From Candidatus Woesebacteria bacterium GW2011_GWF1_31_35 (GTDB lineage Bacteria; Patescibacteriota; Microgenomatia; UBA8517), in assembly GCA_001029755.1 (NCBI GenBank), contig CP011214.1, positions 1,754 through 65,753 on the forward strand: a stretch of 64,000 nt of DNA, in the 5' to 3' direction. This document shows, one piece after another, positions 890 through 44,243 of this stretch; within the stretch, counting starts at the first letter, position 1; each line of letters starts with the position of its first letter. The notes below the pieces were generated by a model that searched no databases, was not told the DNA's origin, and saw nothing but the letters and a program-made list of their open reading frames with translations. The translations under genes and the position numbers were made by a program.

Positions 890-896
890 AAATTAA

Positions 897-1178
897 TTAT
901 ATACCCAACATTTCTTTAACCACATCTGAAGAATAAGATCTTTTAGATTTTCTAGAAGAAGCAATAGCTTTTAAATAACTTGGACTAGAAAGAGCTTCCA
1001 TGTCCTCAATTAAAGATTCCCATATGTTATTTGGGATCAATACACCAAGAGGTTCCTGATTTCTCATCACTCTTACAAATTTACCTTTATCTTTTGCTCT
1101 TGCAAACAATTTTGTTATTCCTGCTTGAGCTTCCTGAACGGAAGCAAAAGATTCCATCCTAATTAATTGTTGAGTCAT
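897..1178 (-). CDS. Type II antitoxin, Phd/YefM family
   Basis: It is a 93 aa protein with a Phd/YefM-like N-terminus (...FVRVMRNQEPLGVLIPNNIWESLIEDME...). It is 8 bp upstream of the toxin gene. Confidence 0.65.
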   Translation of the reverse strand: MTQQLIRMESFASVQEAQAGITKLFARAKDKGKFVRVMRNQEPLGVLIPNNIWESLIEDMEALSSPSYLKAIASSRKSKRSYSSDVVKEMLGI

Positions 1179-1210: not shown

Positions 1211-2050
1211 TCAAGAGGTTGTATACTTAAAGTAGGCAATGGGAAAATGAAGACTAGATAGAAAGCTCCAAAGGAATCCATTTACACCATCAAGTATCCC
1301 CAAGTGTCTAAAATATAAATTAAAAAATGTAAAAGTTGGTTTAATAAATATATAACTCAAAAATTCAGCTAAACCTTTTGAAACTTTTTTATCTTTTAAT
1401 TCTTTTGCATGTAAATCTGTATAACGATTCATTCTCCAAAAATATTTTTTTAAAGTTGGAGAATCAAAATGTAACAAATCATTATTTAACCAGCCTACTT
1501 TCCCATTAATTTCTATTTGTTCATGCACTGATTTTTGAGGAAACTTGGCAAAACCATTTTTAACAAGTCTTATTACCCCATCAGGATAAACACCTGCATG
1601 AATTAATGGTTTCCCTAAAAACATATTCCTTCTTGGTATAAAATACCCAGTTATTTCACCCCTATCTCTTCCTATTTTTCCATCTCTTTCTTCAATTAAC
1701 ATTTGGTGTCTTAAAAAAAGTTCGGAAGGTTTATTTTGTTTTAATTTATTAGTTATTACATCCTTTATTTCTTTTGAAAGTTCTGGAGTTAATGCTTCAT
1801 CAGCATCCATTTGTAAAATCCATTCATTTGAAGCTTTTTCTAATGCAATTTGTTTTGTTATATGAAAAATATCATGATGTGGTTCAAGATATACTTTTGC
1901 TCCAAAACTTTCTGCAATCTTTTTTGTTTTATCTTTAGAATATTCATCAACAATAATTATTTCATCTGCAATTGTCTTTACAGATTCTAAACATCTCCCA
2001 ATATTTTCTTCTTCGTTTCTTGTTGCAAGTACTACAGATAGTTTATTCAT
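1211..2050 (-). CDS. GT2 family glycosyltransferase
   Basis: The N-terminus reads LSVVLATRNEEENIGRCLESV...IIIVDEYSKDKT...MDADE (GT-A DxD architecture). Confidence 0.8.
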   Translation of the reverse strand: MNKLSVVLATRNEEENIGRCLESVKTIADEIIIVDEYSKDKTKKIAESFGAKVYLEPHHDIFHITKQIALEKASNEWILQMDADEALTPELSKEIKDVITNKLKQNKPSELFLRHQMLIEERDGKIGRDRGEITGYFIPRRNMFLGKPLIHAGVYPDGVIRLVKNGFAKFPQKSVHEQIEINGKVGWLNNDLLHFDSPTLKKYFWRMNRYTDLHAKELKDKKVSKGLAEFLSYIFIKPTFTFFNLYFRHLGILDGVNGFLWSFLSSLHFPIAYFKYTTS

Positions 2051-2052
2051 AT

Positions 2053-3372
2053 TTATTTAGCTATAATTCCTTTGATTTTAAAATAATCTGCAATTGACTT
2101 ATTAATCCAATCACTTTGATCTGATTTTGTTTGTGCATTAGCAACCAATCCAGCTTCTGGTAATTTATTTATGACAACTAATTCATCTTTACCAGAACTT
2201 GAAGCTTCTTTAATTTTTAAAATCATTTGATCAAAAGCTAAACTATAATTTCTTGCAATATAGACATCTCCACCTAAAGTAGAAGTTAAACTAAAAGAAG
2301 AAATAAAAAGAATAAATGAAAACAATAATGTCAATAATTTATTTTGCATTATACCTCTTGCATGCCAAGAAACAATAAAAACAGACATTAGTACTAAAAA
2401 CATTAAAGTAATATCTGACCTATCAGGTGGGAGCCTACCTAATGTTTTAAAGGCAGGGAAAACATAAAGAATACTTGCTATCACCAATAAACTTAAAATT
2501 GATCCTATGTTTAAATATATCTTTTCTTTATCAATATAAATCCTTTTATTAAATTGGCTAAATACGTACGATAAAACTGCAGTTAATGATGAAAGAAAAA
2601 TAATATTTTTAATAATTAAATAATAAAGTAGTTTTGGACCTTCTTGAACAGAATAAAAGATACTTCCTAATATATTCATCGAATCAGATCCTCCACCAAC
2701 TGCTCTTATACTATTTCCAGGTGACAAATAAACTATTAACAGAGAAGTTATTGATGAAATAAACATAATAAGTAAATATTTCTTCGATTTTTTGAAGATG
2801 AATACATAAACTAAACTTCCCAATAGTATTAAATTAACCATTAAACCAAATGTCTCATTTCCTCCGACCGCTAATAATGTAAATAAAAATACTAATAATA
2901 ATTTCTTTGAAGAAAGAGCCAGTAATATAAAAATAATTGGCCAAAGATAAGTTATGGTTCCTGAAAGCCAGTACCAAGTTTCCATTTTGTTAGGTGTAAT
3001 AAAATAAAGAGAAACTAAAGCCATGGATGATAATATATAAAGATAAACATTCTTTAATTTAAGATTTAAAAATGACCTGAAAAATGACAATAATGCGAAA
3101 AATAATAAAGAGAGAGTAATAATTGAAAAAAGAGAGGAATTTCCAGAATTAGAAGAATATGCTCCAAAGAAAGTTTGTAAAAATGTTGAGGTAAATCTTC
3201 CACTCCAAGACAGATACCAACTTAATTGCGCTTTCCAGAAACCTTGACTAAAAACCGTTGATCCATAGGCAAAATCATCAGCAGACATTCTATTAAATGG
3301 AATTATTGAAAAAATTTTTAAAAATCCCATTAAGGCTAATACTGACATTGAAAACCAAGCATATTTTTTCAT
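2053..3372 (-). CDS. Polytopic membrane protein, GT-C-like (acidic ADD motif in first external loop)
   Basis: It is 439 aa with at least 10 predicted hydrophobic helices. The motif ...NRMSADDFAYGS follows the first helix. Confidence 0.45.
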   Translation of the reverse strand: MKKYAWFSMSVLALMGFLKIFSIIPFNRMSADDFAYGSTVFSQGFWKAQLSWYLSWSGRFTSTFLQTFFGAYSSNSGNSSLFSIITLSLLFFALLSFFRSFLNLKLKNVYLYILSSMALVSLYFITPNKMETWYWLSGTITYLWPIIFILLALSSKKLLLVFLFTLLAVGGNETFGLMVNLILLGSLVYVFIFKKSKKYLLIMFISSITSLLIVYLSPGNSIRAVGGGSDSMNILGSIFYSVQEGPKLLYYLIIKNIIFLSSLTAVLSYVFSQFNKRIYIDKEKIYLNIGSILSLLVIASILYVFPAFKTLGRLPPDRSDITLMFLVLMSVFIVSWHARGIMQNKLLTLLFSFILFISSFSLTSTLGGDVYIARNYSLAFDQMILKIKEASSSGKDELVVINKLPEAGLVANAQTKSDQSDWINKSIADYFKIKGIIAK

Positions 3373-3377
3373 ATTAG

Positions 3378-5036
3378 TTAATTAGCTACTATTCTAAAGT
3401 ATTTAAAACTATTTGATCCATATATTTCTTTTACAATATTAGCTTCATTTGAAATTTCTTCAGGAGTCCCTACTAAAAGTGAGTTTGGATAAATTGGTCT
3501 CATCTCATCATATTTAATACTTAAAAAGTGATATTTGTCAAAATTTTTAACTGTTGAAAATCCATATCCATCTCTCGCTGTCAAAGTATGATTTTTTTGA
3601 AAAGTTAAAGGATCATACTTTGTATAGAAAAGAAATAGTATGTACGGTTGGTCATATCTATCAGTAACCACTATATTTTTATACTTATCTTTGTTTTCAT
3701 TAACATAAGTAACCAATTCTTTTAAACCATATTGACTAGAATATGGATATTCTTTTGCCATATGAACCCAATACATATGTTCATATCTTAAAAATCCCAA
3801 AATAGTAGCTACAGATATTAAAACTAACAATAAAATTCTTATTATTTTATTTTTATTTTTTGTTATTAAACCAATAATAGTCAGCAGTCCCAGGCTACTT
3901 ATAATAGTTAATGGTATTACCATGTTTTGAGCTCTAAGTGCGTGCGGTGATTGAAAAGTTAAAGCAGCTGCCATTGGTGCGATAATTAACCAATAAAATA
4001 TAAGTTTAATCGGCTTTTCTTTGAATCTTTTAATTAAAACTATAATTCCAACAGCTAAGAATAAAATATCGGTTAAATACATTTCCCCTGTTTCAGGAAC
4101 TTTATTTCTTTGAATGTCATCTCCTGATAAAAACAAGAATAAACCATGGAAGTGTTCACCCCAATTATCCATAAAAGCTAAACCATAATTAACTACTTTA
4201 TTATGAATTAACTTTGCAGGAAGACTCCTAAAATCACCATGTTCAGTTCTCTGTTCTTCAATTCTTGAAAGTGGTCCTGGATCTGCAAAAAGTCCTACCC
4301 CAGTGACTCTAGAAGATACAGCTCCCTTTGTGAAATCTAATATAAGAGGTATTAATAGTAAAAATGATACAGACAGGCTTATTATTATTACTTTAAGGTT
4401 CTTTTTAACAAATAAATCTCTAAAGTAGATTACCAACAGTCCTAAACCCAGTAGTGGAACTACAATTCTTGCAGCATGATATGTATATAAAGATAATATA
4501 AATGAAAAAAAGCTAAGTATTAAATAGTAAGCTTTTTCCCTGGTATTTATAAACTTAATAAATAACCAGGTTCCCAAAACTATAAAAAATGTAGCCAGAT
4601 TTACTTCCCAACCACCTCTACTAAAATGAATATGCCAAGGTGAGATTGCAAGCATACCACTTGTAATAAGTGCCAAATTTTCGTTTTCTTTAATATTTAA
4701 ATACTTTTTAAAAATCTCTAAAGTAAGATAATAGAGAACTAAAACTGTTAATACACCAGCAAAAGCTCCCGGAATTCTTACAGCCCACTCATTTAAACCT
4801 AATAATTTTACGAAAGGAATAACTGTATAAAAATAAAGCCCTGGTTTATAGTCATTAAATGATTGGAAATGGATAGGCCAAGAATTTCCATGTTCATCCA
4901 TTCCTGTTTTAATTAAAGAATATGCATTGTATCCAATAGCTGCCTCATCAGCGTTAAAGGCGGGGTAGGAATCAAGCCTCCAGAATCTTAATCCAAAAGC
5001 TAAGACAATAATTAAAATAAATAATAACTTTTTCAT
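3378..5036 (-). CDS. GT39/PMT/ArnT-like GT-C membrane glycosyltransferase (paralog 1)
   Basis: The N-terminus has ...NADEAAIGYNAYSLIKTGMDEHGNSWPIHFQSFNDYKPGLYFYT with the PMT/ArnT-family DE motif. It has many TM helices and a C-terminal soluble domain with ...YKNIVVTDRYDQPYILFLFYTKYDP. Confidence 0.8.
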   Translation of the reverse strand: MKKLLFILIIVLAFGLRFWRLDSYPAFNADEAAIGYNAYSLIKTGMDEHGNSWPIHFQSFNDYKPGLYFYTVIPFVKLLGLNEWAVRIPGAFAGVLTVLVLYYLTLEIFKKYLNIKENENLALITSGMLAISPWHIHFSRGGWEVNLATFFIVLGTWLFIKFINTREKAYYLILSFFSFILSLYTYHAARIVVPLLGLGLLVIYFRDLFVKKNLKVIIISLSVSFLLLIPLILDFTKGAVSSRVTGVGLFADPGPLSRIEEQRTEHGDFRSLPAKLIHNKVVNYGLAFMDNWGEHFHGLFLFLSGDDIQRNKVPETGEMYLTDILFLAVGIIVLIKRFKEKPIKLIFYWLIIAPMAAALTFQSPHALRAQNMVIPLTIISSLGLLTIIGLITKNKNKIIRILLLVLISVATILGFLRYEHMYWVHMAKEYPYSSQYGLKELVTYVNENKDKYKNIVVTDRYDQPYILFLFYTKYDPLTFQKNHTLTARDGYGFSTVKNFDKYHFLSIKYDEMRPIYPNSLLVGTPEEISNEANIVKEIYGSNSFKYFRIVAN

Positions 5037-6721
5037 TTAACTTCTATAATTCTAAATGCCGTATCCCTATTATTAAGATATTTAATTTCCTTAATTAGCC
5101 TAAACTCCTTTTCATCATTTGAGTCAGCTGGCGGAATACGAAGTGTATCTGCAACAAAAAGAGTTCCCCTATCTCCCCTATTTATAGACCAATCAATTGG
5201 ACCAAATTCAATATTGTCTAATTTTGTAATATAACCAACATCTCCAATGTACTCACTATTTACAAAACTTGTATTTTTTTGATATTTAGAAGGATCATAT
5301 TTTTGAAAAAATAGAAAGAAAATATATGGCTGTGCAAAACTTTGCTGAACAACAATTTTTTTGTAATTTCCTTGTATTGGTGTAATTGTCTCTACAACTT
5401 GTGAATAGCCATATGACCAAAGTTTGGAGTTGTGTGCTGAAACGTGTACAAAATAAGAATCTAAAAAGTAAGTTATGCTAACTAAATAAACCAAAAAGAC
5501 TATTGAGTAAAAATAAACTTTATATTTATTTTTGTTTATAAAGGTAATTAAACCACTAAGTCCAAATGTACAAATTATTATTAAAGGTATTGCCATATTA
5601 AAACTTCTAACTGCATGCACCTGATCACGTGACAAGACAGCAGGAAGAGGAGCTAATATTAGCCAAAAAAGAAAAAACAAATGTTCTTTCTTAAGCTTAT
5701 TTTTAAATATTTCAAAAAATCCTAAAATTAAAATTATTAAATCAGATAAAAGTAACATTCCTTGATAAGGTGCAGAATGCCTTAGATTTGAAAAATCTCC
5801 TTCGAAAAATAAAAACCTTCCTGAAAAATGATTAAACCAGCGTCCCATTATTCCCCGTTTAAAATTTAGATCTTCTGAATGGAATAGGTAATAACTTAAA
5901 CTTCCAATTTTCTCTTTTCCTTCATCAAGCATACTTTGTATGTATTCTTTAGGCCTTGGGTATGAAAAAACACTAAATACTTCAAGTCTTCCTGTTAAAC
6001 CAGTAAACATACTAAGAATTATTGGAGATGAAATTAATAGACCTAAAAGAAGCGATTGTGTTAAATATTTTTTTGGAAACTTAACTAAATCTTTAAAATA
6101 AAAAATTAATAAAAGTACTACCACCAAACCAGATGAAAGCTTTGCACCTTGGTAAGCTAAGAGTGTAAGAGCAAAGAAAAGAGAACTTATAATTAGGAAT
6201 TTATTCTTTTCTAGTGATTTAAGGAAAAAATAAATTCCTGCTAAAGTTAAAGTAAGTGACAAATTTACTTCCCACGCTCCACGAGAGAAATAAATAAGCC
6301 ATGGATTAAAAGCTCCTATAAAACCTGTAAATATGGCAAACTTTTTTCCAAAGAATCTATTTGCAATTAAATATATTAAATAAATTGAAATTACTCCAAA
6401 AATTGCAGAAGGTAAACGAACTGAAAATTCACTTAGACCTAAAACAGCAACAAATGGAACTGTCGTATAAATATATAGTCCAGGTTTATAATCCCCAAAT
6501 GATTTAAAAATTAAAGGCAAGGTTTTTCCATATTCATCTTTTCCTGTTTTCAAAATTGAATATGCGTTATACCCTAAGGAAGCTTCATCTGGAGTTAGAT
6601 GTGGAGGGATATTATCTAGGTTCCATACTCTAATAATTGCTGCCAATAAAATTATTAGCCACAATATATTTTTATTTAAAAGTTTAATTATTTTCATATA
6701 GTTCAAAGGCAACACTTCCAT
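5033..6721 (-). CDS. GT39/PMT/ArnT-like GT-C membrane glycosyltransferase (paralog 2)
   Basis: It carries TPDEASLGYNAYSILKTGKDEYGKTLPLIFKSFGDYKPGLYIY and the same C-terminal domain motif (QPYIFFLFFQKYDP). It overlaps the upstream gene by 4 bp. Confidence 0.8.
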   Translation of the reverse strand: MEVLPLNYMKIIKLLNKNILWLIILLAAIIRVWNLDNIPPHLTPDEASLGYNAYSILKTGKDEYGKTLPLIFKSFGDYKPGLYIYTTVPFVAVLGLSEFSVRLPSAIFGVISIYLIYLIANRFFGKKFAIFTGFIGAFNPWLIYFSRGAWEVNLSLTLTLAGIYFFLKSLEKNKFLIISSLFFALTLLAYQGAKLSSGLVVVLLLIFYFKDLVKFPKKYLTQSLLLGLLISSPIILSMFTGLTGRLEVFSVFSYPRPKEYIQSMLDEGKEKIGSLSYYLFHSEDLNFKRGIMGRWFNHFSGRFLFFEGDFSNLRHSAPYQGMLLLSDLIILILGFFEIFKNKLKKEHLFFLFWLILAPLPAVLSRDQVHAVRSFNMAIPLIIICTFGLSGLITFINKNKYKVYFYSIVFLVYLVSITYFLDSYFVHVSAHNSKLWSYGYSQVVETITPIQGNYKKIVVQQSFAQPYIFFLFFQKYDPSKYQKNTSFVNSEYIGDVGYITKLDNIEFGPIDWSINRGDRGTLFVADTLRIPPADSNDEKEFRLIKEIKYLNNRDTAFRIIEVK

Positions 6722-8360
6722 CCAAAAAATTAATTGTCTTTATTTTACTCCAATCTGCTGGAGCGTTTTTGGGACTTGTTACAAGAAGGCATTTTGCTTG
6801 CCTACAATCCACTATTCTTTTACTTTCTTGAATAAACTTATAACCTTCTTTAGGTATCTGCCAATCATTAACAAAATAGTATTTATCAAATCCATCAACC
6901 CAATACCAACCTGCTTGATAAAACCTATTTAAATTTTTATCATTCCTATACCAATTAGAATTAAATGCACTATAGAAAAGAATAAATTCATGCGGTTCTC
7001 CATATTTTTTAGTAATTATTATCTTTGCATAATTATCATTATTCTCTTTTATGTAACTAACTACTTCTAAATATCCATATTGCCAACTTTCGGAATATTT
7101 ATTTTTATAATCAGTAAAATATTTCATTAAATAATTTTCAAAAAATAAAAATAATATAACTACATATAAAAATATGAATAATAATCTATTTTTTCCTTTA
7201 ATTTTTTTAATAACATAGTTAACACCAAGCGAAGTTAAAATCATTGGTATTGGAAGCATAGTAATTGCACGTAATACATGTGGGTCTTCTCTAGTTAAAC
7301 TACTAGCAATTGGTCCTAATAAAATCCAAGATAAAAGTAAATAACTTTCTTTGGTTTTTAGTTTCAATAAATAAATAAACCCAATTATTAAAAATGGAAA
7401 ATTAATTAAATAAATAAGACCATTTTTTGGAAGACTAAATTGATAATTTGATCCACCTTCTAAAATCAAAAACTTCGGGGAAAAATGGCTAAAATAATTT
7501 TTAATAAATTCTTTCGAAAAATACGTAATTTTATTTGATAGTATTCTAGGGATTGGGTCAGGAGCCTTTATTTTTTTTCTTAATTCAATTATTTTATTTG
7601 TTGCCCCTTCATCTAATATTGCCACCTTAGAATACCTTGCAGATCCTGAAGAACTAACAAGTTGATAAAACATTGGAACAAAAAAAATTGCTAAGAAAAT
7701 TAGTATTTTTTTGGCTATAATTTTATTTCCTTCAAAAAAACCTTTAAATTCATTTTTATAAATTAATAATAAAGATAATAAAAATAACGGAGTAAAAATA
7801 CGATATGAGTTATATGTCCAAACAGTTAAGCTAAAGAAAAGCGTAGAAAATATTAAATACTTAACTTTTAAACTATTAATAAATTTAATAAGGAAATAAA
7901 CCCCTAAAATAAATAAGAATAAGGCTAAGTTAGCCTCAAAAGCAGGTCTTCCTAAAAAGAAAGTCCATGGTTCAATTGTAACCAAAAAAGCAGAAAACAA
8001 AGCTATCCTTTTATAACTTTTTACAAATTTAAGATTATCTTTTAAAAGTTCTACCATTAATAAATACGTTACCCAGATAGTTCCAATCCCAGCTAAAACT
8101 GAGGGTAATCTAACAGCAAAAGAATTAATTCCAAAGAAAAATTCTGAAATTGAAGTTAAATAAATATAAACAGGTAATTTAAAATCCCCATAAGCTTTAA
8201 AAATTAAAGGCATTATTTTCCCCCACTCATCTTTTCCTGAAGTTAGAATTGAAAAAGCATTATAACCATGACTAATTTCATCCCAATTTAAAGAAGGAGG
8301 GTTGGAATTTATAAACAAAAACCTTGTAACAACAGTTAAAATTAAAATTAAATAAATCAT
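6684..8360 (-). CDS. GT39/PMT/ArnT-like GT-C membrane glycosyltransferase (paralog 3)
   Basis: It carries NWDEISHGYNAFSILTSGKDEWGKIMPLIFKAYGDFKLPVYIY. It is polytopic. Confidence 0.8.
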   Translation of the reverse strand: MIYLILILTVVTRFLFINSNPPSLNWDEISHGYNAFSILTSGKDEWGKIMPLIFKAYGDFKLPVYIYLTSISEFFFGINSFAVRLPSVLAGIGTIWVTYLLMVELLKDNLKFVKSYKRIALFSAFLVTIEPWTFFLGRPAFEANLALFLFILGVYFLIKFINSLKVKYLIFSTLFFSLTVWTYNSYRIFTPLFLLSLLLIYKNEFKGFFEGNKIIAKKILIFLAIFFVPMFYQLVSSSGSARYSKVAILDEGATNKIIELRKKIKAPDPIPRILSNKITYFSKEFIKNYFSHFSPKFLILEGGSNYQFSLPKNGLIYLINFPFLIIGFIYLLKLKTKESYLLLSWILLGPIASSLTREDPHVLRAITMLPIPMILTSLGVNYVIKKIKGKNRLLFIFLYVVILFLFFENYLMKYFTDYKNKYSESWQYGYLEVVSYIKENNDNYAKIIITKKYGEPHEFILFYSAFNSNWYRNDKNLNRFYQAGWYWVDGFDKYYFVNDWQIPKEGYKFIQESKRIVDCRQAKCLLVTSPKNAPADWSKIKTINFLDGSVAFELYENN

Positions 8361-10515: not shown

Positions 10516-10527
10516 TTTTAAAAAAAA

Positions 10528-14472: not shown

Positions 14473-14499
14473 GAAATATTAAATCTACTTGATTAATAA

Positions 14500-16218: not shown

Positions 16219-16280
16219 ACTTAAATAATACCACTATTTTAGTAGTTTAATAATTTAAAGTTAAAAAATTTTAATAAGTT

Positions 16281-17171: not shown

Positions 17172-17176
17172 ATTAT

Positions 17177-21369: not shown

Positions 21370-21397
21370 ACCCTTAATTGTATCAAAGAAGCCAAAA

Positions 21398-36148: not shown

Positions 36149-37629
36149 ATTCTAATTCTTCTTTGGACTATTATTCCTCCAAACTTAATTTCTTTTTCCA
36201 CCTTACCAATTCCTTTTTGCCTTGCTAGCCAAGCTTCAAGCCTATCAGGGTGTGGCGGATCCACCTCATATAAAGTATAGAGTAAATCAAACTTTTCTGT
36301 AAATTTAAGATTATCATTATTTCTAATATTTTTTTCCCATAAAAATAAGTAGTCATATGAGTAAGGAATTACAGGTGGAACATAGACATCAACATTAAAA
36401 TTATTACCAATTGAATCTTCATAAATCCAATTTATTGCTTCTAGCTGATTTTGAATAAATATTTCGTTAGAGTTATTAACGTTGGTTGTTAGTTTAATTT
36501 TTATTTGAATTAAATTTAATAAAATTAATAAGATGAACATTAAAACAATTCTTTTTGGACTAATTTTAAAAAAATAGGAAATTCCCCAAGAAAAAAATAG
36601 TACGAAAATTAAAAAATATCCTGTTAAATAATAATTATATAAATTTCCATAATTTCCTCTATATAATAAGTAACCTATTAATGGAATCCCTAAAAAAATT
36701 GCAAAAAGTTTACTAATTTCATTATTCTTTTTCAATTTTAATATTCCAAATAATGAAATAGTTAAAAATATACTAGCTATTAATATATTATTGTTAAATA
36801 TTAATGAACTTATAATATCCCATATTCTTTTTATTCTAGTTTGTAAAAATTGTAAGAAGTTAATTTCTATTTGACTATCCTTATGATTAGTAATTTGAAG
36901 CAAAATATTATTAAATAAAATATTTTCGTGTCTAAAATTAAAAATTACTTGTGGAAGAAAAGTTGTAATTAATAAACTTAATGATAAAACTGCAGTTAAT
37001 TTATTTAATTTTTTCTTTTGCCAAAAGCTAAAAATTAAAAGTATAGGTAAATAAAATATTGCACTAGCAAGTTCAAAGTGAAATGAAATCCCAACTAATA
37101 AAAACATTAATATCCAAAATATTGGTTTATTATCTTTTTCTTTTATAATTTTAATCATTAAATAGAAAATTAAAATTGATGTTAAATAAATCGGAGTAGG
37201 GTTTGATAACCACCTACTAGATAAAATTAAATAATTTGAAAATGATCCAATTAAAAGTGCTATAAAACCAACCACCTTTCCACCTATCTCTTCCCCTGAC
37301 TTATAAAGAAAAAATAAAGAAATTGTCACCAAAGATGATAGAAATATTGATGGAATTGCCGGATTTCCGTTGCCAATAAAATAAAATGGGGCAATTAAAT
37401 AATAATAAAATGGACCTAGAAATACTCCTTCAAGTCCAGTAACAGGTCCTATTAGAAAAAATTTATGGTTTTTTATTAATTCCCAAATAATTAACGCGTC
37501 TCTTCCTTGATCATAATGAAAATCCAACAAGTCTCCTATTCTATAAATTCTTAAGATAAATGCAAAGAGCAAAATTATTAGAATTAATAAATTCCACGGA
37601 GTAAATTGTTTTCTAAGATTTTTTAGCAT
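36145..37629 (-). CDS. Polytopic GT-C-like membrane protein; paralog of 38629..40116
   Basis: It carries FHYDQGRDALIIWELIKNHKFFLIGPVTGLEGVFLGPFYYYLIAPF, which matches LGDEGRDVIVVRNLLVKADPILIGPGTSIGSMYLGPLYYYFIAPF in 38629..40116. Confidence 0.5.
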   Translation of the reverse strand: MLKNLRKQFTPWNLLILIILLFAFILRIYRIGDLLDFHYDQGRDALIIWELIKNHKFFLIGPVTGLEGVFLGPFYYYLIAPFYFIGNGNPAIPSIFLSSLVTISLFFLYKSGEEIGGKVVGFIALLIGSFSNYLILSSRWLSNPTPIYLTSILIFYLMIKIIKEKDNKPIFWILMFLLVGISFHFELASAIFYLPILLIFSFWQKKKLNKLTAVLSLSLLITTFLPQVIFNFRHENILFNNILLQITNHKDSQIEINFLQFLQTRIKRIWDIISSLIFNNNILIASIFLTISLFGILKLKKNNEISKLFAIFLGIPLIGYLLYRGNYGNLYNYYLTGYFLIFVLFFSWGISYFFKISPKRIVLMFILLILLNLIQIKIKLTTNVNNSNEIFIQNQLEAINWIYEDSIGNNFNVDVYVPPVIPYSYDYLFLWEKNIRNNDNLKFTEKFDLLYTLYEVDPPHPDRLEAWLARQKGIGKVEKEIKFGGIIVQRRIRI

Positions 37630-38608
37630 ACTTTCTCACAACATCCAATACTTTTTCTGAAGCTTTTTCAAAAGACAATCCTTCTATTTTTGCAGCTGAT
37701 GCAATTTTATGACCTCCTCCACCAAGTTCTTTAGTAATAGCTGATGTATCAAAATCTGTTCGTCCTCTAAAACTAATTGTCATATATTTAGGTCGTTCTT
37801 CTACTCCTATAAATCCAAAATCTGTTCCTTTAACAATCGGAGCAAAAAGACTTGAAGATTTAGCCTTTACATCTTCTAAATCTCCACCTGTTTTATAGAC
37901 TTCATAAGGCACAAAAGACCAAACAAATCTTCTTTCTTTATCTATTTCCATTCTGGAAAGTACTTTTGAATAAAATTTCAAAATATCAAAATTTTCACTT
38001 CGATAAATTTTATTTACTACCATATTCTTATCAGCTCCAAGCTCCATAAGTTTAGAAACTATTAATAAAGTCTTAGAAGTAACGTTTGGATAAGCTAATG
38101 CGCCAGTATCTCCAATAATTGATGTCAATAAACATTCAGCAATTTTTTTGTCTAGTAATATTCCCCAATCTTTATATATATCAAAAAGAATTTCTCCTAC
38201 TGACGTAGCTTTACTATCTAAAAGTTTTATATCTCCAGTTAAAGTACTTATAAAATGATGGTCTATTACTATTGTGAAAATATCAGCTTTAAAAAAAATA
38301 TCTTTATCAATTAAGAGTGATAGATTCGGGGTATCTAAAGTAATAAATAATTCATATTCAGAAAAATCAAATTTTTCAAAATCAATTCCGACCTTTATAT
38401 CTTGATAACCTTTTAGATAATCTACTTGTCTAGTTACTTTTTTTGAAGGACAAATTACATCAACCTTTTTTCCCATATCTTCTAAAACCAGTTTCAACGA
38501 AAGAGTACTACCAATCCCATCCGGGTCTGCTCCTCTATGACAATTTAATAAAATTGTATTTGCTTTTTTTATTTTATCTAGAATTAATATTGATTCTTCG
38601 TAGTTCAT
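37613..38608 (-). CDS. DHH-family phosphoesterase (NrnA-like bifunctional oligoribonuclease/pAp phosphatase)
   Basis: It carries NCHRGADPDGIGSTLSL...IVIDHH... and a DHHA1-like C-terminus with GGGH. Confidence 0.75.
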   Translation of the reverse strand: MNYEESILILDKIKKANTILLNCHRGADPDGIGSTLSLKLVLEDMGKKVDVICPSKKVTRQVDYLKGYQDIKVGIDFEKFDFSEYELFITLDTPNLSLLIDKDIFFKADIFTIVIDHHFISTLTGDIKLLDSKATSVGEILFDIYKDWGILLDKKIAECLLTSIIGDTGALAYPNVTSKTLLIVSKLMELGADKNMVVNKIYRSENFDILKFYSKVLSRMEIDKERRFVWSFVPYEVYKTGGDLEDVKAKSSSLFAPIVKGTDFGFIGVEERPKYMTISFRGRTDFDTSAITKELGGGGHKIASAAKIEGLSFEKASEKVLDVVRKYAKKS

Positions 38609-38628
38609 AATTTATTTTTTAACTATGC

Positions 38629-40116
38629 TTATTTTGTATGAATTAACTTATATATTATAACTCCATCAACTTCCCACATACTATCAATCTTGCTCCAACC
38701 AAAATTAGCTACTTCTGCTTTTGACGAATGTGTTGGATCGCATTTTTTCTCCTCCATCTCACAAACTACGAAAAGTTGAGCTTTAACACTTTCTGGAATT
38801 TGTGGATCAATCTCAACCATCTTTGAATTTTCTTTTTCTAGAAAATACTGATATCCATCTTCATAATTTCTTTCAGCAACAACCGCGAAATTAAAAGCTT
38901 CTCCTAAAGATTTATTAATAATATCTTTAGAAACATTTTCACTTCTTTGAAGTTGTCTATTAGGACTAAATAGTATTGGACTATTTTTTAAATTAACAAA
39001 GACTAATATTAAAAATATTAAAATTGCTAATATTTTAAATTTAGTTTTATAAACAAATTGCAAAATAAAACCTAATAATATAAATAGTGCCGGAAATATA
39101 AATCCAAAATAATGATCATAAATGTGTTGTTTATATAATGCCAAACCTAAAAGTGCAAAGCCTAACCATATTATTAAAACCAGTAAGGGTTTATTAAATT
39201 GTTTTATTCTTTTTCTGACTGCAATAAACCACGCCAAAGATAAGATGATTAGAGGTGTAATAATTTTGCCAACAAGTAGATTTTTTCCTGTTAGAAGTGA
39301 TGTATTAATATCAACAAATATTGGATATACATTAGGTATAGCCTTCCAGGGTTTTATAGAAACAGTTTCTTGTCTTACTGTCAAAAATTTATAAAAAGCC
39401 TTGGTATTCATCCAATCATGTCTAATATCAAAAATAAAAAGGGGACTCATTAAAAATAAAAATACTGATCCGGCAATTAAAGTGTATTTAACCGGAACTT
39501 TAGAAATTAGCCAAAAAATAAATAGTACTGGAGCAAGAAGTAAACCTAAGTAATGGGATTGTAAAACAAAAGCATATGAAATCACTGTAACTATTAACCA
39601 ATTGTATTTTTTTTCTTTCCATACTTTCCAAATTGAATAAATAGAGAACAGTGCAAAAAAAGGCATAATATTAGGATTCCAGGATGACCTTGAATAAATA
39701 ATTACTACTGGAGAAATTGCATAAAGTATTGAAGAGAAAATTGAAGCAGTCTCTCCAAACCATTCTTTAGATACTTTATAAATTAGAAAAATTGTAATAA
39801 CACCTAAAAATGCAATCTCAACTGCAGGCCCAACTGGAGAAAAATTAAAAAGAAATAAAAAAGGTGCTATAAAATAATAATAAAGTGGGCCTAAGTACAT
39901 ACTTCCAATTGATGTTCCAGGACCTATTAAAATAGGGTCAGCCTTAACTAATAAATTCCTAACAACTATTACATCACGTCCTTCATCTCCTAAAAAGGTC
40001 ATAAACTCATTTATCTTATAAAGCCTTAAAAAGGCACCAACTAATAAAATTAATACCAATATCCAATTATTTTTTAACCAACTAATAATTCTTTTTTTCA
40101 TCTTAATTTTCTCCAA
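38629..40116 (-). CDS. Polytopic GT-C-like membrane protein; paralog of 36145..37629
   Basis: See 36145..37629. Confidence 0.5.
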   Translation of the reverse strand: MEKIKMKKRIISWLKNNWILVLILLVGAFLRLYKINEFMTFLGDEGRDVIVVRNLLVKADPILIGPGTSIGSMYLGPLYYYFIAPFLFLFNFSPVGPAVEIAFLGVITIFLIYKVSKEWFGETASIFSSILYAISPVVIIYSRSSWNPNIMPFFALFSIYSIWKVWKEKKYNWLIVTVISYAFVLQSHYLGLLLAPVLFIFWLISKVPVKYTLIAGSVFLFLMSPLFIFDIRHDWMNTKAFYKFLTVRQETVSIKPWKAIPNVYPIFVDINTSLLTGKNLLVGKIITPLIILSLAWFIAVRKRIKQFNKPLLVLIIWLGFALLGLALYKQHIYDHYFGFIFPALFILLGFILQFVYKTKFKILAILIFLILVFVNLKNSPILFSPNRQLQRSENVSKDIINKSLGEAFNFAVVAERNYEDGYQYFLEKENSKMVEIDPQIPESVKAQLFVVCEMEEKKCDPTHSSKAEVANFGWSKIDSMWEVDGVIIYKLIHTK

Positions 40117-40817
40117 AGTTTAAATAGATCTAAAAAACTTTTAATTATTACCTTAATATTTCTTCCCGTACCTTTTCCTTTAGTTCTTGGATAATGAGTT
40201 ACTGGAATTTCAATAATCTTGTAATTTGCTCTCTTTACTTTTATTAAAAACTCACTTGAAATAAAAGCTCCTCTTTCTGATTCTAATTTTGGAATTTTAT
40301 CAATTACTGATTTTGAAACTAATTTAAAACCACAATCAATATCATGAACATGAAGTCCAAAAAGAATCATAACAGCAAGTTCCCACATTCTAGAAGTTAT
40401 TATTTTAAACTTAGAAACCTGTCTTTTTTTATAATAACCAATAACTAAATCTGCATTTGTTTCTTTTTGTTTTTCTATAAACTTGGTAATCTCATTAAAA
40501 TCAAACTGTCCATCTGAATCAGTAAAGGCAACCCAAGAATATTTTGCATTATAAAAACCACTTTTAAGGCTCGCTCCATAACCTTTATTTTCATTGTGAG
40601 TTATTACTTTAATTCGAGAGTCCTTTGCTAGATTATTACTAATTTCTCCAGTTCTATCAGAAGATCCATCATTAACTATAATTATTTCCCAATTTTTAGC
40701 CACTTTTTCTAAGATTTTTTTAGTTTTTTCTACAGTTTCTTCAATACTACCTTCTTCATTAAAAGTGGGGAAAAAGACTGATAATTCATCAATTTTATAA
40801 TCATTCATAGATATCAA
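40098..40817 (-). CDS. GT2 polyprenyl-phosphate sugar synthase (DPM1/ArnC-like). The track start is a TTG codon; the first ATG is at about 40808
   Basis: It carries LSVFFPTFNEEGSI...IIIVNDGSSDRT...FTDSDGQFD. Confidence 0.8.
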   Translation of the reverse strand: MISMNDYKIDELSVFFPTFNEEGSIEETVEKTKKILEKVAKNWEIIIVNDGSSDRTGEISNNLAKDSRIKVITHNENKGYGASLKSGFYNAKYSWVAFTDSDGQFDFNEITKFIEKQKETNADLVIGYYKKRQVSKFKIITSRMWELAVMILFGLHVHDIDCGFKLVSKSVIDKIPKLESERGAFISSEFLIKVKRANYKIIEIPVTHYPRTKGKGTGRNIKVIIKSFLDLFKLWRKLR

Positions 40818-40857
40818 ATTCTACCACGAAAAGGTAGTTTTGTGATATGATTTAAGC

Positions 40858-42018
40858 GTGCAGAAGAAAATTTTAAAGATAACTATTTTAATATTATTAA
40901 CCATAATTCCTACTTTTTTGATCTGGATTCCATTTTTTGCCAGAGTTAAGTCTTTTTGGACTATTCCACTTCCCCAACAAGGAATGGCTACAATTGTCTC
41001 TAACTTTGATGGTCCACTTTATCTTATAATAGCCAAGACTTTTTATAACCCAGATTTAATTGGAGCAAATTATCAATTTCCACTATCAAATGAATACTAT
41101 TCAGCCCATTTTCCACTTTTTCCAATTTTTATTAAAACTTTTGCAATTTTTTTGGGACACCCCTATTCAATGCTTTTTGTAACCTTAATCTCCTCATTTT
41201 TAGCATTGTTTTTCTTCAACAAACATGCAAGAAAATTATTAGATAAAAATAATGCCATGTGGTTAACCTTTATTTTTGCGATTTTTCCTGCAAGATGGTT
41301 AATAGTAAGGTCGGTTGGTTCTCCTGAACCATTTTTCATTGCAGCAATCCTGGCTTCTACATATTTTTTTGGAAAGAAAAAATATATTTGGGCTGGAATT
41401 TGGGGAGCTTTAGCTCAAATGACCAAATCCCCTGGAATACTTTTATTTTTAGCTTACCTTATTCAAATTTCAATCCCGCATTTTAAAGAATTAGCCACAG
41501 GTGGAATAAAAAAATTTATATTAAAGCTGGATCTTAAAAATACCTATCCAATATTTTTTATACCACTAGGCCTTTTGGTTGTGTTTACAATTTATGGATT
41601 TACCTATGGCGATTTTTTCACCTATTTTAAATCAGGGGATAATATTCATCTTTTCTTCCCACCTTTTCAGATTTTTAATTTTTCAGCTCCTTGGGTAGGA
41701 ACTTTTTGGCTTGAAGAAATAATATTTATCTACACGATAGGAGTTTTAGGAGTTTATAAACTTTATCAAGAAAAATTATTTAATTATTTTTACTTTTCAT
41801 TAATATTTTTTATATCTTTACTATTCGTAGCTCACAGAGATTTATTAAGATATGCCCTTCCATTAATCCCTTTTTTAATTTTAGCCTTTAGAGAAACATT
41901 AATTAAAAAGGAATTTAAGATCGCTATGGCTGTTATTATAATTCCAATTTATCTTTATTCACTTGCTTTCATATCCCAAAATGCTATGCCAATTGCAAAT
42001 TGGGCTCCATTCCTATAA
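40858..42018 (+). CDS. Polytopic membrane protein (GT-C-like), GTG start; the only large plus-strand gene inside the glycosylation locus
   Basis: It is 386 aa with about 11 TM helices, and is divergent from 40098..40817. Confidence 0.4.
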   Translation: MQKKILKITILILLTIIPTFLIWIPFFARVKSFWTIPLPQQGMATIVSNFDGPLYLIIAKTFYNPDLIGANYQFPLSNEYYSAHFPLFPIFIKTFAIFLGHPYSMLFVTLISSFLALFFFNKHARKLLDKNNAMWLTFIFAIFPARWLIVRSVGSPEPFFIAAILASTYFFGKKKYIWAGIWGALAQMTKSPGILLFLAYLIQISIPHFKELATGGIKKFILKLDLKNTYPIFFIPLGLLVVFTIYGFTYGDFFTYFKSGDNIHLFFPPFQIFNFSAPWVGTFWLEEIIFIYTIGVLGVYKLYQEKLFNYFYFSLIFFISLLFVAHRDLLRYALPLIPFLILAFRETLIKKEFKIAMAVIIIPIYLYSLAFISQNAMPIANWAPFL

Positions 42019-42064
42019 TTCGATAGTGTTTGAGAGGAAAAATACTTTTAAAATATGCTCTTAT

Positions 42065-42274
42065 ATGGAAATTCCTAGGCATTGGAGACTAAAACAATCA
42101 AGGTACAATCTTTTGGGGGAAATGTGTCCCAATCCTGATTGCCAAGAATTTATATTTCCTCCTAGAGATGTCTGTCCAAACTGTAAAGGTGAGGCAAAAA
42201 TTAAACCTAATGAAATCAGTGGAGCAATATATGATAGAACTCTTAGATTAGCTGGTAGTACCAAGCAAGGCTAA
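42065..42274 (+). CDS. Short Zn-ribbon protein resembling the N-terminal part of DUF35 (thiolase/HMG-CoA-synthase-associated Zn-ribbon/OB-fold) proteins; probably truncated
   Basis: MEIPRHWRLKQSRYNLLGEMCPNPDCQEFIFPPRDVCPNCKG matches the DUF35_N pattern (PRFWR...RY.L.G.KC..C....FPPR..CP.C). The ORF stops about 25 aa later, before any OB-fold. The true start is an internal ATG of track ORF 41963..42274. Confidence 0.35.
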   Translation: MEIPRHWRLKQSRYNLLGEMCPNPDCQEFIFPPRDVCPNCKGEAKIKPNEISGAIYDRTLRLAGSTKQG

Positions 42275-43105
42275 ATTTAATTCTGATACTTGTTCATATA
42301 TTTTGTCTTCATCTTTTATATATTCATTATATTTAGTAATTATTTCTTTTACCCCAGATCTAACAACTTCTTTTGATAATAAAATTTCTTTAGAAGAAAT
42401 AAACGAATGGTCTTTGACCTTAAAACTTGAAAAATCATTTGAATTTAAAAAATTATCAGAAATTTCCAAATGATATACAGAAACTTTAATATCAGCGATA
42501 GAAAGATGCATAAAAGGCTTTGGATTTTCAGGAATAATCTCAGTTGGGATATTTTTATTAACTGCCAATTCTGAATATACTTCTTGTTGAAGCACTCTTA
42601 ATATTGACGTCTTTGGATCTTCACTATCACTTGAATAGGTCATTGGTAAAGTTTTAGATCCTGTAGGTTTTCCTAATTCTATCTTTGGTGGAGTTATATC
42701 CTCACCCATTAAGATACTGTTTTTCTGATTCTTAGGTGTAATTACTAAAGCTGTACCAAATCTTCTGGTTACTCCAGTTTTTACATTATGTAGGATTCTA
42801 TGCATTGTAGAAAGAGAAGTTTTAAATGATGGAGGAAGCTTTTTAAAAAGTCTTTCCATTGGAATTTGATTGTCTGAAAGAAGTGTTAAAAAAGTTAAAG
42901 TTTCAGATAATTTACTATTAGGTCCTGCTGATTTAATAATCCCCCATCTTTTAATTAAATGGTGCATTCCAGGATATGATATTGGTAAATCATAATTAGT
43001 AACCCTAAAAACTTCATCAACCGAACCATATTTAAGATAAAGTCTAATTATATTTTTGTAAAAATCATTTTCTCTTTCTCTAATTTCTGTTTCTTGAAAC
43101 ATCAT
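42248..43105 (-). CDS. Hypothetical protein
   Basis: It is a 285 aa soluble ORF in a consistent coding frame. No family was recognised. Confidence 0.4.
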   Translation of the reverse strand: MMFQETEIRERENDFYKNIIRLYLKYGSVDEVFRVTNYDLPISYPGMHHLIKRWGIIKSAGPNSKLSETLTFLTLLSDNQIPMERLFKKLPPSFKTSLSTMHRILHNVKTGVTRRFGTALVITPKNQKNSILMGEDITPPKIELGKPTGSKTLPMTYSSDSEDPKTSILRVLQQEVYSELAVNKNIPTEIIPENPKPFMHLSIADIKVSVYHLEISDNFLNSNDFSSFKVKDHSFISSKEILLSKEVVRSGVKEIITKYNEYIKDEDKIYEQVSELNLALLGTTS

Positions 43106-43121
43106 ATGAGTGAAGATATTA

Positions 43122-44243
43122 CTACTTTTTCTTCCAAATTACCTTTGTATACATAAGGTAGTTATATGGTAAGACTAGAAATGCAACAACAAAAGCAAGA
43201 ACTAAAAAGTCGTACTTTTCTCCAACTAATTTTGTCCCAATTGGTCCTGCAATTGATTGAATAATTAAAGCCCCTGCTGAAGTTAAATTAAATTGTAAAA
43301 ACTTTAAAACTATCGCCTTTACGCCTTTAATTTCACTATCTTTAAATGTCCAAATATTATTAAAAATATAATTGTTAAAAATTGCAAGCTCTGTTGATAA
43401 AAGCCAAACTAAAACTTCTGTTAATCCTAAATTTCTAAATACTCTTAAAAATATAAAATTAACAATAAACCCAGTTCCTCCAACTATTCCAAACTTTATA
43501 ATTTTTTGTTTATCTTTTATTCCTAAAATAATTGCAACTTTAAAAGTTGAAATCATTTCTTTAGGATTAAACTTTGATTTTTCCATTGTACGAGGTGCAA
43601 ATTCCAAAGGAACTTCAACTGTTTTTTTAGAAAGTTTTATTGATTGATATAAAAGATCTACTTTATAAGCAAATCTAGTAGGTTCCATTAATTTTTCAAG
43701 CTTAATTTTATCAAGCACCCCTTTTACTCTAGTTAGTCTAAAACCAGTAGTTAAATCATGAAGAGATGGTTTAAGTAAAACTAACCTAATAAAAAGATTA
43801 CCAAAAAAACTTACAGCTTTTCGAGATAGCGCCCATTCTTTTGGAACAGATCCTCCTTTAACATAACGGCTTCCAATACAATAATCAGCACCACTTAAAT
43901 ATGCCTCTACCATTGGTTTAACAAATCTTGGAGGATGTTGAAAATCAGCATCCATTTCCATTACAGCATCAGCATTGAGTTTTTCCATTGCAAATTGCAT
44001 TCCTCTAATATAAGCCCAACCTAATCCTTCCTTTTGTTTTTGAAGTAAATGTAAGTTTTTATATTTAGATTGATATCCTTCTACCTTTTTTCCTGTTCCG
44101 TCTGGAGAATAATCGTCAACTATCAAAAGATGCATATCAGCATCTTTTATCTTTGGAAATTCTTCTCCAAAAAGAGCTTCAATCATCCTCCCAATATTTT
44201 CTGCCTCGTTATAGGCAGGCATTACTATTACTATCTTTTGCAT
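43122..44243 (-). CDS. GT2 polyprenyl-phosphate sugar synthase fused to a C-terminal GtrA-like 4-TM domain (GtrB-GtrA-type fusion)
   Basis: The N-terminus has IVIVMPAYNEAENIGRMIEAL...LIVDDYSPDGT...MDADFQHPP. The C-terminus GIVGGTGFIVNFIFLRVF...ELAIFNNYIFNNIWTF is GtrA-like. Confidence 0.7.
   Translation of the reverse strand: MQKIVIVMPAYNEAENIGRMIEALFGEEFPKIKDADMHLLIVDDYSPDGTGKKVEGYQSKYKNLHLLQKQKEGLGWAYIRGMQFAMEKLNADAVMEMDADFQHPPRFVKPMVEAYLSGADYCIGSRYVKGGSVPKEWALSRKAVSFFGNLFIRLVLLKPSLHDLTTGFRLTRVKGVLDKIKLEKLMEPTRFAYKVDLLYQSIKLSKKTVEVPLEFAPRTMEKSKFNPKEMISTFKVAIILGIKDKQKIIKFGIVGGTGFIVNFIFLRVFRNLGLTEVLVWLLSTELAIFNNYIFNNIWTFKDSEIKGVKAIVLKFLQFNLTSAGALIIQSIAGPIGTKLVGEKYDFLVLAFVVAFLVLPYNYLMYTKVIWKKK

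Follow-up and report, generated by a model that had tools for sequence, protein, structure and literature searches.

A 43-kb locus rich in GT-C-type membrane proteins in a Woesebacteria genome, a candidate envelope glycan factory with a core conserved across Microgenomates

Introduction

Rhamnose-rich wall polysaccharides are made by multi-component membrane pathways in Lactococcus (WpsA-J with the three-component CsdAB/CD/EF systems) and in Streptococcus (the four-component GacI-L system) (PMC9574508, PMC8035078). In the Lactococcus cwps pathway, WpsA/B make C55-P-GlcNAc, which is extended by WpsC-F in the cytoplasm and flipped by the Wzx-type protein WpsG; the GT-C glycosyltransferases (GTs) WpsI and WpsJ polymerise and transfer, and separate pairs of a GtrB-like enzyme and a GT-C add single sugars outside (PMC9574508). 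WpsI and WpsJ belong to the cwps cluster and the Csd GT-C enzymes to separate gene pairs (PMC9574508). Here we describe a locus of about 43 kb (positions 1211 to 44243) in a 64,000-nucleotide stretch of Candidatus Woesebacteria bacterium GW2011_GWF1_31_35, a groundwater organism (assembly GCA_001029755.1, contig CP011214.1, positions 1,754 to 65,753), called the window below. The locus encodes 19 large membrane proteins, most of them GT-C-like, together with GT2 enzymes, a GT4, methyltransferases and a Wzx flippase. The closest documented logic is that of the cwps pathway, and we give about an even chance to the reading that the organism has here its main factory for cell-envelope glycans, a greatly expanded, Lactococcus cwps/Wps-like multi-component transmembrane glycosylation pathway.

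Two other kinds of system bear comparison. The Agl pathway of Haloferax runs from AglJ, which acts on a monophosphate lipid, through cytoplasmic GTs, a methyltransferase and a flippase to AglB, followed by a GT-C step outside. The mycobacterial arabinogalactan and lipoarabinomannan (AG/LAM) pathways are the only ones in which we know of comparably many GT-C paralogs. Patescibacteria (Candidate Phyla Radiation, CPR), to which the Woesebacteria belong, have very small genomes with many biosynthetic routes missing, and a life attached to other cells is generally assumed for them; to our knowledge, almost nothing has been learnt of their envelope chemistry. Multi-component extracytoplasmic glycosylation with GT-C enzymes is already well known. 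What is new here is the scale of 19 GT-C-type proteins, a core conserved across a CPR lineage, and a GT-C family resembling oligosaccharyltransferases (OSTs) placed right after Wzx. Our search of the literature for GT-C arrays or OST-like enzymes in CPR or Microgenomates found none and brought up only the Gram-positive precedents, with an incomplete coverage that makes this weak evidence of novelty.

Gene content and proposed pathway

Open reading frames (ORFs) were numbered g01 to g50 by coordinate across the window, using longest-ORF starts. The locus holds 35 of them, all on the minus strand except g33, and 23 of the 34 junctions overlap. A hydropathy scan found 19 polytopic membrane proteins besides Wzx (g02-g06, g08-g11, g18, g19, g21, g23-g25, g27, g29, g31 and g33), which occupy 28.8 of the 43.0 kb of locus DNA (67%); all 19 have 5-11 Kyte-Doolittle segments at a threshold of 1.6, or 8-12 at 1.4. 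Pfam identifies the other enzymes as eight GT2s (g01, g12, g15, g16, g17, g28, g32 and g35, with g15 exactly at the cut-off), one GT4 (g14), two S-adenosylmethionine (SAM) methyltransferases (g13 and g20) and one Wzx (g22). An earlier reading of the letters and their translations (the sequence-only reading) had described the same co-directional, overlapping locus with the same counts of membrane proteins and enzymes, all of which were confirmed. It had left out a gene fragment (g07), the rml genes directly past 44243, and g26 (Bro-N), g30 (DHH/DHHA1) and g34 (no match), which are the non-glycosylation genes within the locus.

Gene content, family and fold assignments and gene order are observed, and from them we infer the donors, the order of steps and the acceptor as follows. 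The GtrB/DPM1-like GT2 g28, the most likely initiator, would start on the inner side of the membrane by placing the first sugar onto polyprenyl phosphate. The GT2s g17, g16, g15 and g12, with the GT4 g14 and the methyltransferase g13, would extend it to a lipid-linked oligosaccharide, using nucleotide sugars that may include dTDP-rhamnose from the adjacent rmlA-D and wbuC. Wzx g22 would flip the oligosaccharide to the outer face, and g18 would transfer or polymerise it onto an acceptor, most likely a wall-associated rhamnose-containing polysaccharide. g32 and g35, the latter fused to a GtrA-type membrane domain, would make polyprenyl-phosphate monosaccharides, and with these donors the remaining GT-C proteins, about 17 of PMT_2/ArnT-like, ALG6-like and DUF6056 type, may elongate, branch and decorate the glycan outside.

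The locus would share with the Lactococcus and Streptococcus systems a GtrB-like GT2 start on polyprenyl monophosphate, which requires no phosphoglycosyl transferase, GT2/GT4 elongation, Wzx, GT-C enzymes acting outside and rml genes. It differs from them in gathering 19 GT-C-type proteins in one locus and in having no RgpA-F rhamnan genes, ATP-binding cassette (ABC) exporter or LCP ligase in the window. The Wzx-adjacent g18 is of a distinct, non-Pfam family with a predicted OST-like periplasmic domain, and the host is a Patescibacterium with a genome of about 1 Mb.

The features of the locus and the adjacent rhamnose genes are as follows (TM, transmembrane).
1211 to 2050, minus strand: g01, GT2 at the distal end of the locus (Pfam Glycos_transf_2, 63 bits)
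2053 to 3372, minus strand: g02, DUF6056-family membrane glycosyltransferase of predicted GT-C fold, with a MSADDF motif after TM1
3378 to 9937, minus strand: g03-g06, four tandem GT-C paralogs of family 'F1', PMT/PMT_2-like, 526-562 amino acids, at or above the Pfam cut-off
9922 to 10515, minus strand: g07, F1 fragment of 197 amino acids, probably a decayed copy
10528 to 11979, minus strand: g08, F1 paralog of 483 amino acids (Pfam PMT_2 32 bits, PMT 24.6 bits; BLAST to F1 members)
11976 to 14472, minus strand: g09 and g10, tandem ALG6/Gpi18-like GT-C pair, 418 amino acids each
14500 to 16218, minus strand: g11, conserved F1 member (Pfam PMT_2, 50 bits)
16281 to 21369, minus strand: g12-g17, putative cytoplasmic assembly block, in map order GT2, SAM methyltransferase, GT4, GT2, GT2, GT2 (Pfam)
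21398 to 23008, minus strand: g18, GT-C family absent from Pfam and NCBIfam, with STT3/AglB-like predicted fold
22983 to 27224, minus strand: g19, g20 and g21, F1 GT-C, SAM methyltransferase and distant F1 GT-C (Pfam, BLAST)
27184 to 28647, minus strand: g22, Wzx-type flippase (Polysacc_synt_3 180 bits, Polysacc_synt 92 bits; 13 predicted TM segments)
28632 to 33253, minus strand: g23, g24 and g25, GT-C proteins that are PTPS_related/PMT_2-related, g31-related and PMT_2 (37 bits), respectively
33250 to 34077, minus strand: g26, Bro-N domain protein, not a glycosylation enzyme (Pfam Bro-N, 32 bits)
34074 to 35396, minus strand: g27, ArnT-like PMT_2 GT-C (Pfam PMT_2, 94 bits)
35393 to 36148, minus strand: g28, GT2 like polyprenyl-phosphate sugar synthases (Pfam GT2, 97 bits)
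36145 to 40116, minus strand: g29, g30 and g31, PMT_2, DHH/DHHA1 phosphoesterase (37613-38608) and PMT_2 (Pfam)
40098 to 40817, minus strand: g32, ArnC/DPM1-like GT2 (Pfam GT2, 112 bits)
40858 to 42018, plus strand: g33, probable GT-C
42248 to 43105, minus strand: g34, 285 amino acids, no Pfam or NCBIfam match
43122 to 44243, minus strand: g35, DPMS-type GT2 fused to a GtrA/DPMS TM domain (Glycos_transf_2 91 bits, GtrA_DPMS_TM 52 bits)
44945 to 50781, minus strand: dTDP-L-rhamnose block with RmlD, RmlC, WbuC cupin, an ORF of 292 amino acids, an RmlB-like fusion of 638 amino acids, and RmlA

NCBI gene calls on a near-identical contig place the starts of g20, g23, g24, g31 and g32 slightly later, which shortens some of the overlaps counted here. 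An identical g27 is found on NCBI contig DATDSE010000019.1 (assembly GCA_035291365.1). The G+C content is about 29% along the whole window, in which a search for tRNAs and Rfam RNAs found none. Promoter and terminator scans of 1-20 kb did no better than on shuffled sequence and thus do not inform the operon structure.

GT-C identity of the membrane proteins

Membership in the GT-C superfamily, which the sequence-only reading had claimed for all 19 membrane proteins, is supported by family profiles or structure for 18 of them. The sequence-only reading would have been refuted by a lack of GT-C profile or structure matches, or by acidic motifs on the cytoplasmic side, and the locus withstood this check. 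Eleven (g03-g06, g08, g11, g19, g25, g27, g29 and g31) reach the gathering score of Pfam PMT or PMT_2, g05 exactly at the cut-off, and five more (g09, g10, g21, g23 and g24) are linked by BLAST or profile-profile comparison. g02 matches Pfam DUF6056, a family whose clan is unconfirmed, and its placement as GT-C rests on fold; g18 is linked by predicted structure only. The AlphaFold models of both are helical bundles with a GT-C fold. g33 is only a probable GT-C, with PMT_2 at 22 bits (cut-off 26.1), at most 60% in hhalign, and a weak match (41 bits) to NCBIfam AZOBR_p60025, 'cell surface glycopolymer formation'.

The 15 acidic strings quoted in the sequence-only reading are all present in these proteins, at a spacing other than the one given there: the motifs lie at ORF residues 24-67, about 5-15 residues past the end of TM1, not 30-45. 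The motif is of D[DE]/DxD type in 14 of the 19 proteins. g09/g10 (HPDLNN/HGDVND), g18 (GHDGIWH) and g23 (NMHDD) deviate, each with an Asp motif that is invariant within its family, and g33 has none that is clear. The best evidence that the motifs may represent a homologous, outward-facing catalytic loop comes from g27, which aligns with the ArnT sequence of 5EZM (phmmer E 7.6e-18) and places SSWDEAWY over VGPDEGRY. We take PDEGRY of ArnT to be the periplasmic-loop Asp55 motif of 5EZM. The short K/R-rich N termini agree with the outward orientation that this homology suggests. Together with the family matches, the alignment supports the proposal, already made from the sequence, that the locus builds glycans at the outer face from lipid-linked donors. 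Evidence that the GT-C set uses lipid-phosphate-linked donors is indirect, namely that three polyprenyl-phosphate-synthase-like GT2s and Wzx share the locus.

The likeness to the ArnT/ArnC system (GT83) thus includes the alignment of g27 with its DE motif, the best match of g32, which is ArnC, and the adjacency of GT2 and GT-C genes; unlike that system, the window shows no ArnA, ArnB or ArnD genes. Patescibacteria are not known to us to make lipid A, so the acceptor must differ from that of ArnT.

All-versus-all BLAST groups g03, g04, g05, g06, g08, g11 and g19 into the F1 family, with 27-36% identity over the full length; D30, D47, R87 and R140 are invariant in its alignment. The tandem copies g03-g06 are 28-36% identical over the full length, and each has a C-terminal soluble domain and the DE motif after TM1. 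g21 is a distant member (BLAST to g05, E 5e-22). The fragment g07, which has no Pfam match, aligns by BLAST with residues 259-412 of g11 and by hhalign with F1 columns 241-377 (90% probability); it covers only the middle third of the family and is probably what is left of an eighth F1 paralog. The other BLAST groups are the pair g09 and g10 and the group of g24, g29 and g31 (g24 versus g31, E 2e-14). g09 and g10, 32-33% identical, do not match Pfam, and their comparison with the PMT_2 group gives 96% probability in hhalign (E 1.5e-9); the name 'Gpi18-like mannosyltransferase' is borne by their homologs, some of which match Alg6_Alg8, PIG-U, ALG3 or GT87. g23 matches PTPS_related weakly (20.8 bits), and its family aligns with the g31 family at 96.9% (hhalign, E 1.5e-10). 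Searched against chains of the Protein Data Bank (PDB), the F1 profile gave nothing of use (ArnT at E 0.16), and g09/g10 had no meaningful match; g27, searched as a single sequence, was alone in matching ArnT. Single-sequence hhalign linked neither g18 nor g02 to the other paralog groups, and comparison of their family profiles with each other reached 72% only.

These family names raise the question of protein glycosylation. The PMT_2/GT39-like GT-C proteins could O-glycosylate surface proteins (S-layer, pilins, the SpaA-like adhesin g50) from polyprenyl-phosphate sugars, with g18 as an OST that would pass the flipped oligosaccharide en bloc to protein in an Agl-like manner; we consider this unlikely. 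Pfam PMT and PMT_2 are named after protein O-mannosyltransferases, and a bacterial GT39 enzyme is required for the glycosylation of secreted proteins in Caldicellulosiruptor, which sets a precedent (PMC6151902). The Pfam matches of the 19 proteins cover the N-terminal PMT/PMT_2 core, and neither MIR nor PMT_4TMC was found in any of them at E <= 0.01, a point against this explanation; the proteins are therefore PMT_2/ArnT-like and not PMTs (GT39) in the strict sense. The explanation also leaves the need for about 19 GT-C enzymes unaccounted for; we know of no protein-glycosylation system that requires so many.

Conservation across Microgenomates

Genes related to g18 lie in 261 genome stretches. 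For 80 loci the surrounding DNA was retrieved, up to 10 kb to either side, and its ORFs were assigned to window genes by phmmer. Going by their titles, the loci belong to Woese-, Blackburn-, Ames- and Shapirobacteria and further Microgenomates. Among the metagenome-assembled genomes that carry the locus, many from co-assembly or TPA submissions are titled 'uncultured Gammaproteobacteria bacterium' (loci L006, L011, L013, L015 and others), which we take as a mislabel.

The comparison with other Patescibacteria envisaged by the sequence-only reading, whose placement of the organism in that group was right, found a core that is syntenic in about 80 Microgenomates species. Its order is PMT_2, DHH, PMT_2, GtrB-like GT2, g25-like PMT_2, g23-like, Wzx and g18, followed by three GT2s, GT4, a variable slot, methyltransferase, GT2, GT2 and F1. 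Wzx lies directly upstream of the g18 ortholog in 67 of the 80 loci, with overlapping ORFs in 62 of these 67, and within three ORFs of it in 78. At least two GT2s and a GT4 follow g18 in 64 of 75 loci. In the 58 loci longer than 20 kb, the GT-C-like ORFs number 3-10 (median 6.5) and account for 49% of the DNA. The array had been called extraordinary from this genome; it is remarkable, as a conserved, group-wide feature of Microgenomates and not as a peculiarity of one genome.

The variable slot after GT4 often holds a YfhO-type GT-C and a PMT_2. An ORF of 725-790 amino acids with no counterpart here follows GT4 in L003 (15286-17463), L004 (13162-15393), L009 (15182-17515) and L072 (15226-17598); Pfam YfhO was recorded for the L003 and L004 copies. 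The g30-type DHH/DHHA1 gene (NrnA-like) also stands between two PMT_2 genes in many genomes (L002, L003, L005, L016 and others).

The locus is thus of two parts, a deeply conserved group-wide core and a lineage-specific GT-C expansion. The g19-g20-g21 segment inserted between Wzx and g18 here is missing from most other loci. g11 has positional orthologs of 52% median identity in 19 loci, and for g03-g08 the syntenic stretches of other species contain no close ortholog. Amplified GT-C families vary by lineage, with seven F1 copies and a fragment here. Three tandem full-length g23-like genes are found in L009 (2983-8067), L016 (16385-21218), L051 (2132-7198) and L072 (1093-6048), where this genome has one.

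Such differences could mean that the paralogs are a variation repertoire, few being used at once and lineage-specific duplication and loss diversifying the glycan for phage evasion or host matching. It is in the lineage-dependent amplification of the F1 and g23-like families, in the decayed g07 and in the lack of close orthologs of g03-g08, unlike g11, that this idea finds its support, together with the precedent that Gram-positive side-chain GT-C systems determine phage receptors (PMC9574508). We regard it as very unlikely that the paralogs are mainly such a repertoire: all 19 ORFs are intact and keep the invariant residues of their families, and identities of 27-36% point to old paralogs, not recent duplicates. 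Invertible promoters, repeats and phase-variation tracts were neither sought nor seen. As this explanation concerns evolution and regulation, it is compatible with a Lactococcus-like glycan pathway.

The GT-C protein next to the flippase

The sequence of g18 recurs unchanged in Candidatus Woesebacteria bacterium RIFOXYC1_FULL_31_51 as 'hypothetical protein A2422_02600'. The g18 family, 46-67% identical across the Microgenomates group, comprises 1522 clusters (50% identity, E <= 1e-3) in a library of 1.84 billion proteins, and g18 itself matches no Pfam or NCBIfam family. Among the invariant residues are those of GFWGxNGHDGxWH (D49), E152-S153, PFWFLETM (E253), D260-R261, R302 and E461-D462, and of RPP right after the last TM helix. 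Foldseek with the predicted structure put eight STT3/AglB structures on top (E 6.6e-8 to 1.9e-6), then DPY19 and PglB, with ArnT only at 6.5e-4; STT3/AglB is the best match for both parts of the predicted fold, its TM core and its globular C-terminal domain.

The WWDYG motif is absent from g18 and from the family consensus, and no member of a 43-sequence g18 alignment matches Pfam STT3. The family profile aligns with Campylobacter lari PglB (sequence checked against 3RCE) at a probability of 0.3% in hhalign, and hmmsearch of the g18 profile against all PDB sequences found nothing. Since there is no significant match to the PglB profile, the OST likeness of g18 is structural only. The models thus suggest an OST-like fold and gene order suggests a functional coupling to Wzx, in a protein for which membership in GT66 could not be demonstrated.

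Compared with the Haloferax Agl system and GT66, the predicted fold of g18 is alike, and the pathway logic would run in parallel, with an outside GT-C step fed by DPMS-like enzymes; unlike there, g18 has no WWDYG, no Pfam STT3 match and no significant PglB profile alignment, and the locus has far more GT-C proteins than any Agl cluster. For protein glycosylation, the predicted fold of g18 fits and the missing WWDYG and STT3 signals do not. A bolder proposal, which we hold to be doubtful, is that g18 represents a WWDYG-less branch of STT3-type OSTs across Microgenomates, working with Wzx to transfer the oligosaccharide en bloc, with about 18 GT-C proteins remodelling it outside. The acceptor of such a transfer would be either protein (S-layer, pilin or adhesin) or the wall.

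Many g18 relatives are 900-1160 amino acids long and carry an N-terminal signal-anchored soluble domain of 350-450 amino acids (P0263, P0268, P0280, P0283, P0294 and P0303). This domain has the motifs NPVRG.DFW and ATWL.R.D and matches no Pfam family and no window protein. In the metagenomic P0303 (1639 amino acids), Wzx, the soluble domain and g18 form a single chain. The idea that the relatives of 1000-1160 amino acids are Wzx-g18 fusions was rejected, as only P0303 contains Wzx and the others have the soluble domain of about 400 amino acids.

Lipid-linked donors and pathway families of the window

The best NCBIfam matches of g28, g32 and g35 are polyprenyl-phosphate hexose transferases (DPhHxTase, PgfS, ArnC, AglJ and PpgS). 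For g28 they are PgfS, AglJ and the dolichyl-P hexose transferase of halobacteria, none of which reaches the cut-off, and for g32 it is ArnC (PRK10714), likewise below it at 85 bits. The three had been taken for DPM1/ArnC-like synthases, and models of this kind do match best, at scores (65-85 bits) far below the equivalog cut-offs (375-529), so that their probable action on polyprenyl phosphate is assigned at family level only. AglJ and the halobacterial enzyme among these matches would also suit protein glycosylation. The position of g28 is kept across loci, and it is the candidate initiating enzyme of the conserved core. Wzx g22, the GtrA-type TM domain on g35 and the GT-C genes lie adjacent, an arrangement kept in about 80 species.

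No window protein matches Bac_transf, Glycos_transf_4 (MraY/WecA), Wzy_C/O-antigen polymerase or Wzz at E <= 0.01, and no match to LCP or polysaccharide ABC exporter families was found among the window proteins. The window does not show the gene set of a classical Wzx/Wzy-dependent pathway, although its initiating transferase, Wzy and Wzz might be encoded outside the window. The absence of phosphoglycosyl transferase, Wzy, Wzz, LCP and ABC exporter from the window agrees with a start on polyprenyl monophosphate by a GtrB-like GT2.

Several points weigh against an envelope polysaccharide pathway of the Lactococcus kind. With a Lactococcus-like rhamnan backbone, one would look for an LCP ligase or a polyrhamnose ABC exporter, and the window has neither; the gene for a priming phosphoglycosyl transferase may lie in another part of the genome. 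To these are added the low scores of g28, g32 and g35, whose action on polyprenyl phosphate is suggested by family, and the role of g18, which would rest on fold similarity and gene position, with no sequence match to STT3, PglB or AglB. More generally, the roles proposed for the pathway come from sequence, fold and gene order.

The same gap in wall ligases may point to a different product, a membrane-anchored lipoglycan resembling lipomannan (LM), LAM or glycosylated lipoteichoic acid (LTA), whose anchor would be extended outside by successive GT-C enzymes with polyprenyl-phosphate sugars. The structural matches of g02 and g18 include PimE, AftA, AftB and AftD, related genomes have YfhO-type GT-C genes (the LTA-glycosylation family) in the same locus, and the mycobacterial parallel in GT-C number counts for it. 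The mycobacterial pathways (EmbA-C, AftA-D, PimE, MptA-C) are also alike in using many GT-C enzymes in series outside, supplied with polyprenyl-phosphate sugars by GT2/DPMS-type enzymes. They differ in that their genes are scattered over the genome and belong to GT53, GT85, GT87 and GT89, whereas here PMT_2-like families prevail in a single operon-like array, and genes for decaprenyl-phosphoarabinose synthesis were not seen here. A lipoglycan seems quite unlikely to us, since no genes for the synthesis of phosphatidylinositol or a glycolipid anchor were found in the window, and the conserved Wzx and cytoplasmic GT module argues for a preassembled oligosaccharide and not for a purely stepwise growth outside. 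It does not exclude the wall-polysaccharide pathway, as the two are not mutually exclusive.

Neighbouring genes and candidate acceptors

The dTDP-L-rhamnose block just beyond position 44243 probably supplies sugar to the locus. Its scores are 159 bits (RmlD_sub_bind), 121 (dTDP_sugar_isom), 231 (GDP_Man_Dehyd/Epimerase) and 97 (NTP_transferase), with NCBIfam WbuC at 100 bits. The RmlB-like dehydratase (47987-49903, minus strand) is a fusion whose C-terminal part of about 330 amino acids has no Pfam match at E <= 1. Polysaccharide loci, more typically than those for protein glycosylation, have such rml neighbours and so many cytoplasmic GTs.

A set of secreted or surface proteins is encoded at 51121-54965 and 58433-63962. 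It includes two CAP-domain proteins, a camelysin/TasA-like protein, a lamin-tail-domain protein with a weak signal-peptidase match, and a protein of 1542 amino acids, 21% of them Ser or Thr, with SpaA/SdrD/DUF11 repeats and a TM helix at its C terminus. The Ser/Thr-rich proteins at 58-64 kb had been put forward as plausible substrates of the locus. Their composition was borne out, g49 and g50 having 21% Ser+Thr against about 10% for most window genes. This composition, 14 kb off the locus, is in favour of protein glycosylation; on the other side, g49 and g50 are tied to the glycosylation genes by proximity only.

The other edge of the window (1-1178, minus strand) encodes a short-chain dehydrogenase, truncated where the window begins (about 1-637), then a toxin of the ParE family (638-889) and, at 897-1178, an antitoxin resembling Phd/YefM that scores below the Pfam cut-off. 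Bro-N domains are usual in phage or viral regulators; a Bro-N gene like g26 recurs in L026, L032, L040, L044 and L062, and stands beside a g25-type PMT_2 gene in L032, L040 and L044. An origin of the locus from a mobile element or prophage, suggested by the Bro-N gene and the ParE/Phd pair, was rejected in view of the uniform G+C content and of the gene order kept in about 80 species.

Meaning for the biology of Microgenomates

Complete Woesebacteria chromosomes among the relatives are of 0.8-0.9 Mb, and in a genome of that size a single glycosylation locus of about 43 kb would take up about 4-5%. Together with the synteny across Woese-, Blackburn-, Ames- and Shapirobacteria, this suggests a central place in the biology of these organisms for a complex glycan that is elaborated outside the membrane and may serve, for instance, in attachment, in recognising hosts or in defence against phages. 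Were g18 a WWDYG-less OST, an archaeal/eukaryote-style pathway of assembly, flipping, transfer and remodelling would be a core trait of a major CPR lineage. The OST-like family of g18 is a target for study, and so are the diverged PMT_2, ALG6-like and DUF6056 enzymes, which could widen the known range of acceptors and donors of GT-C enzymes. The enzymes of the locus are also candidate parts for glyco-engineering.

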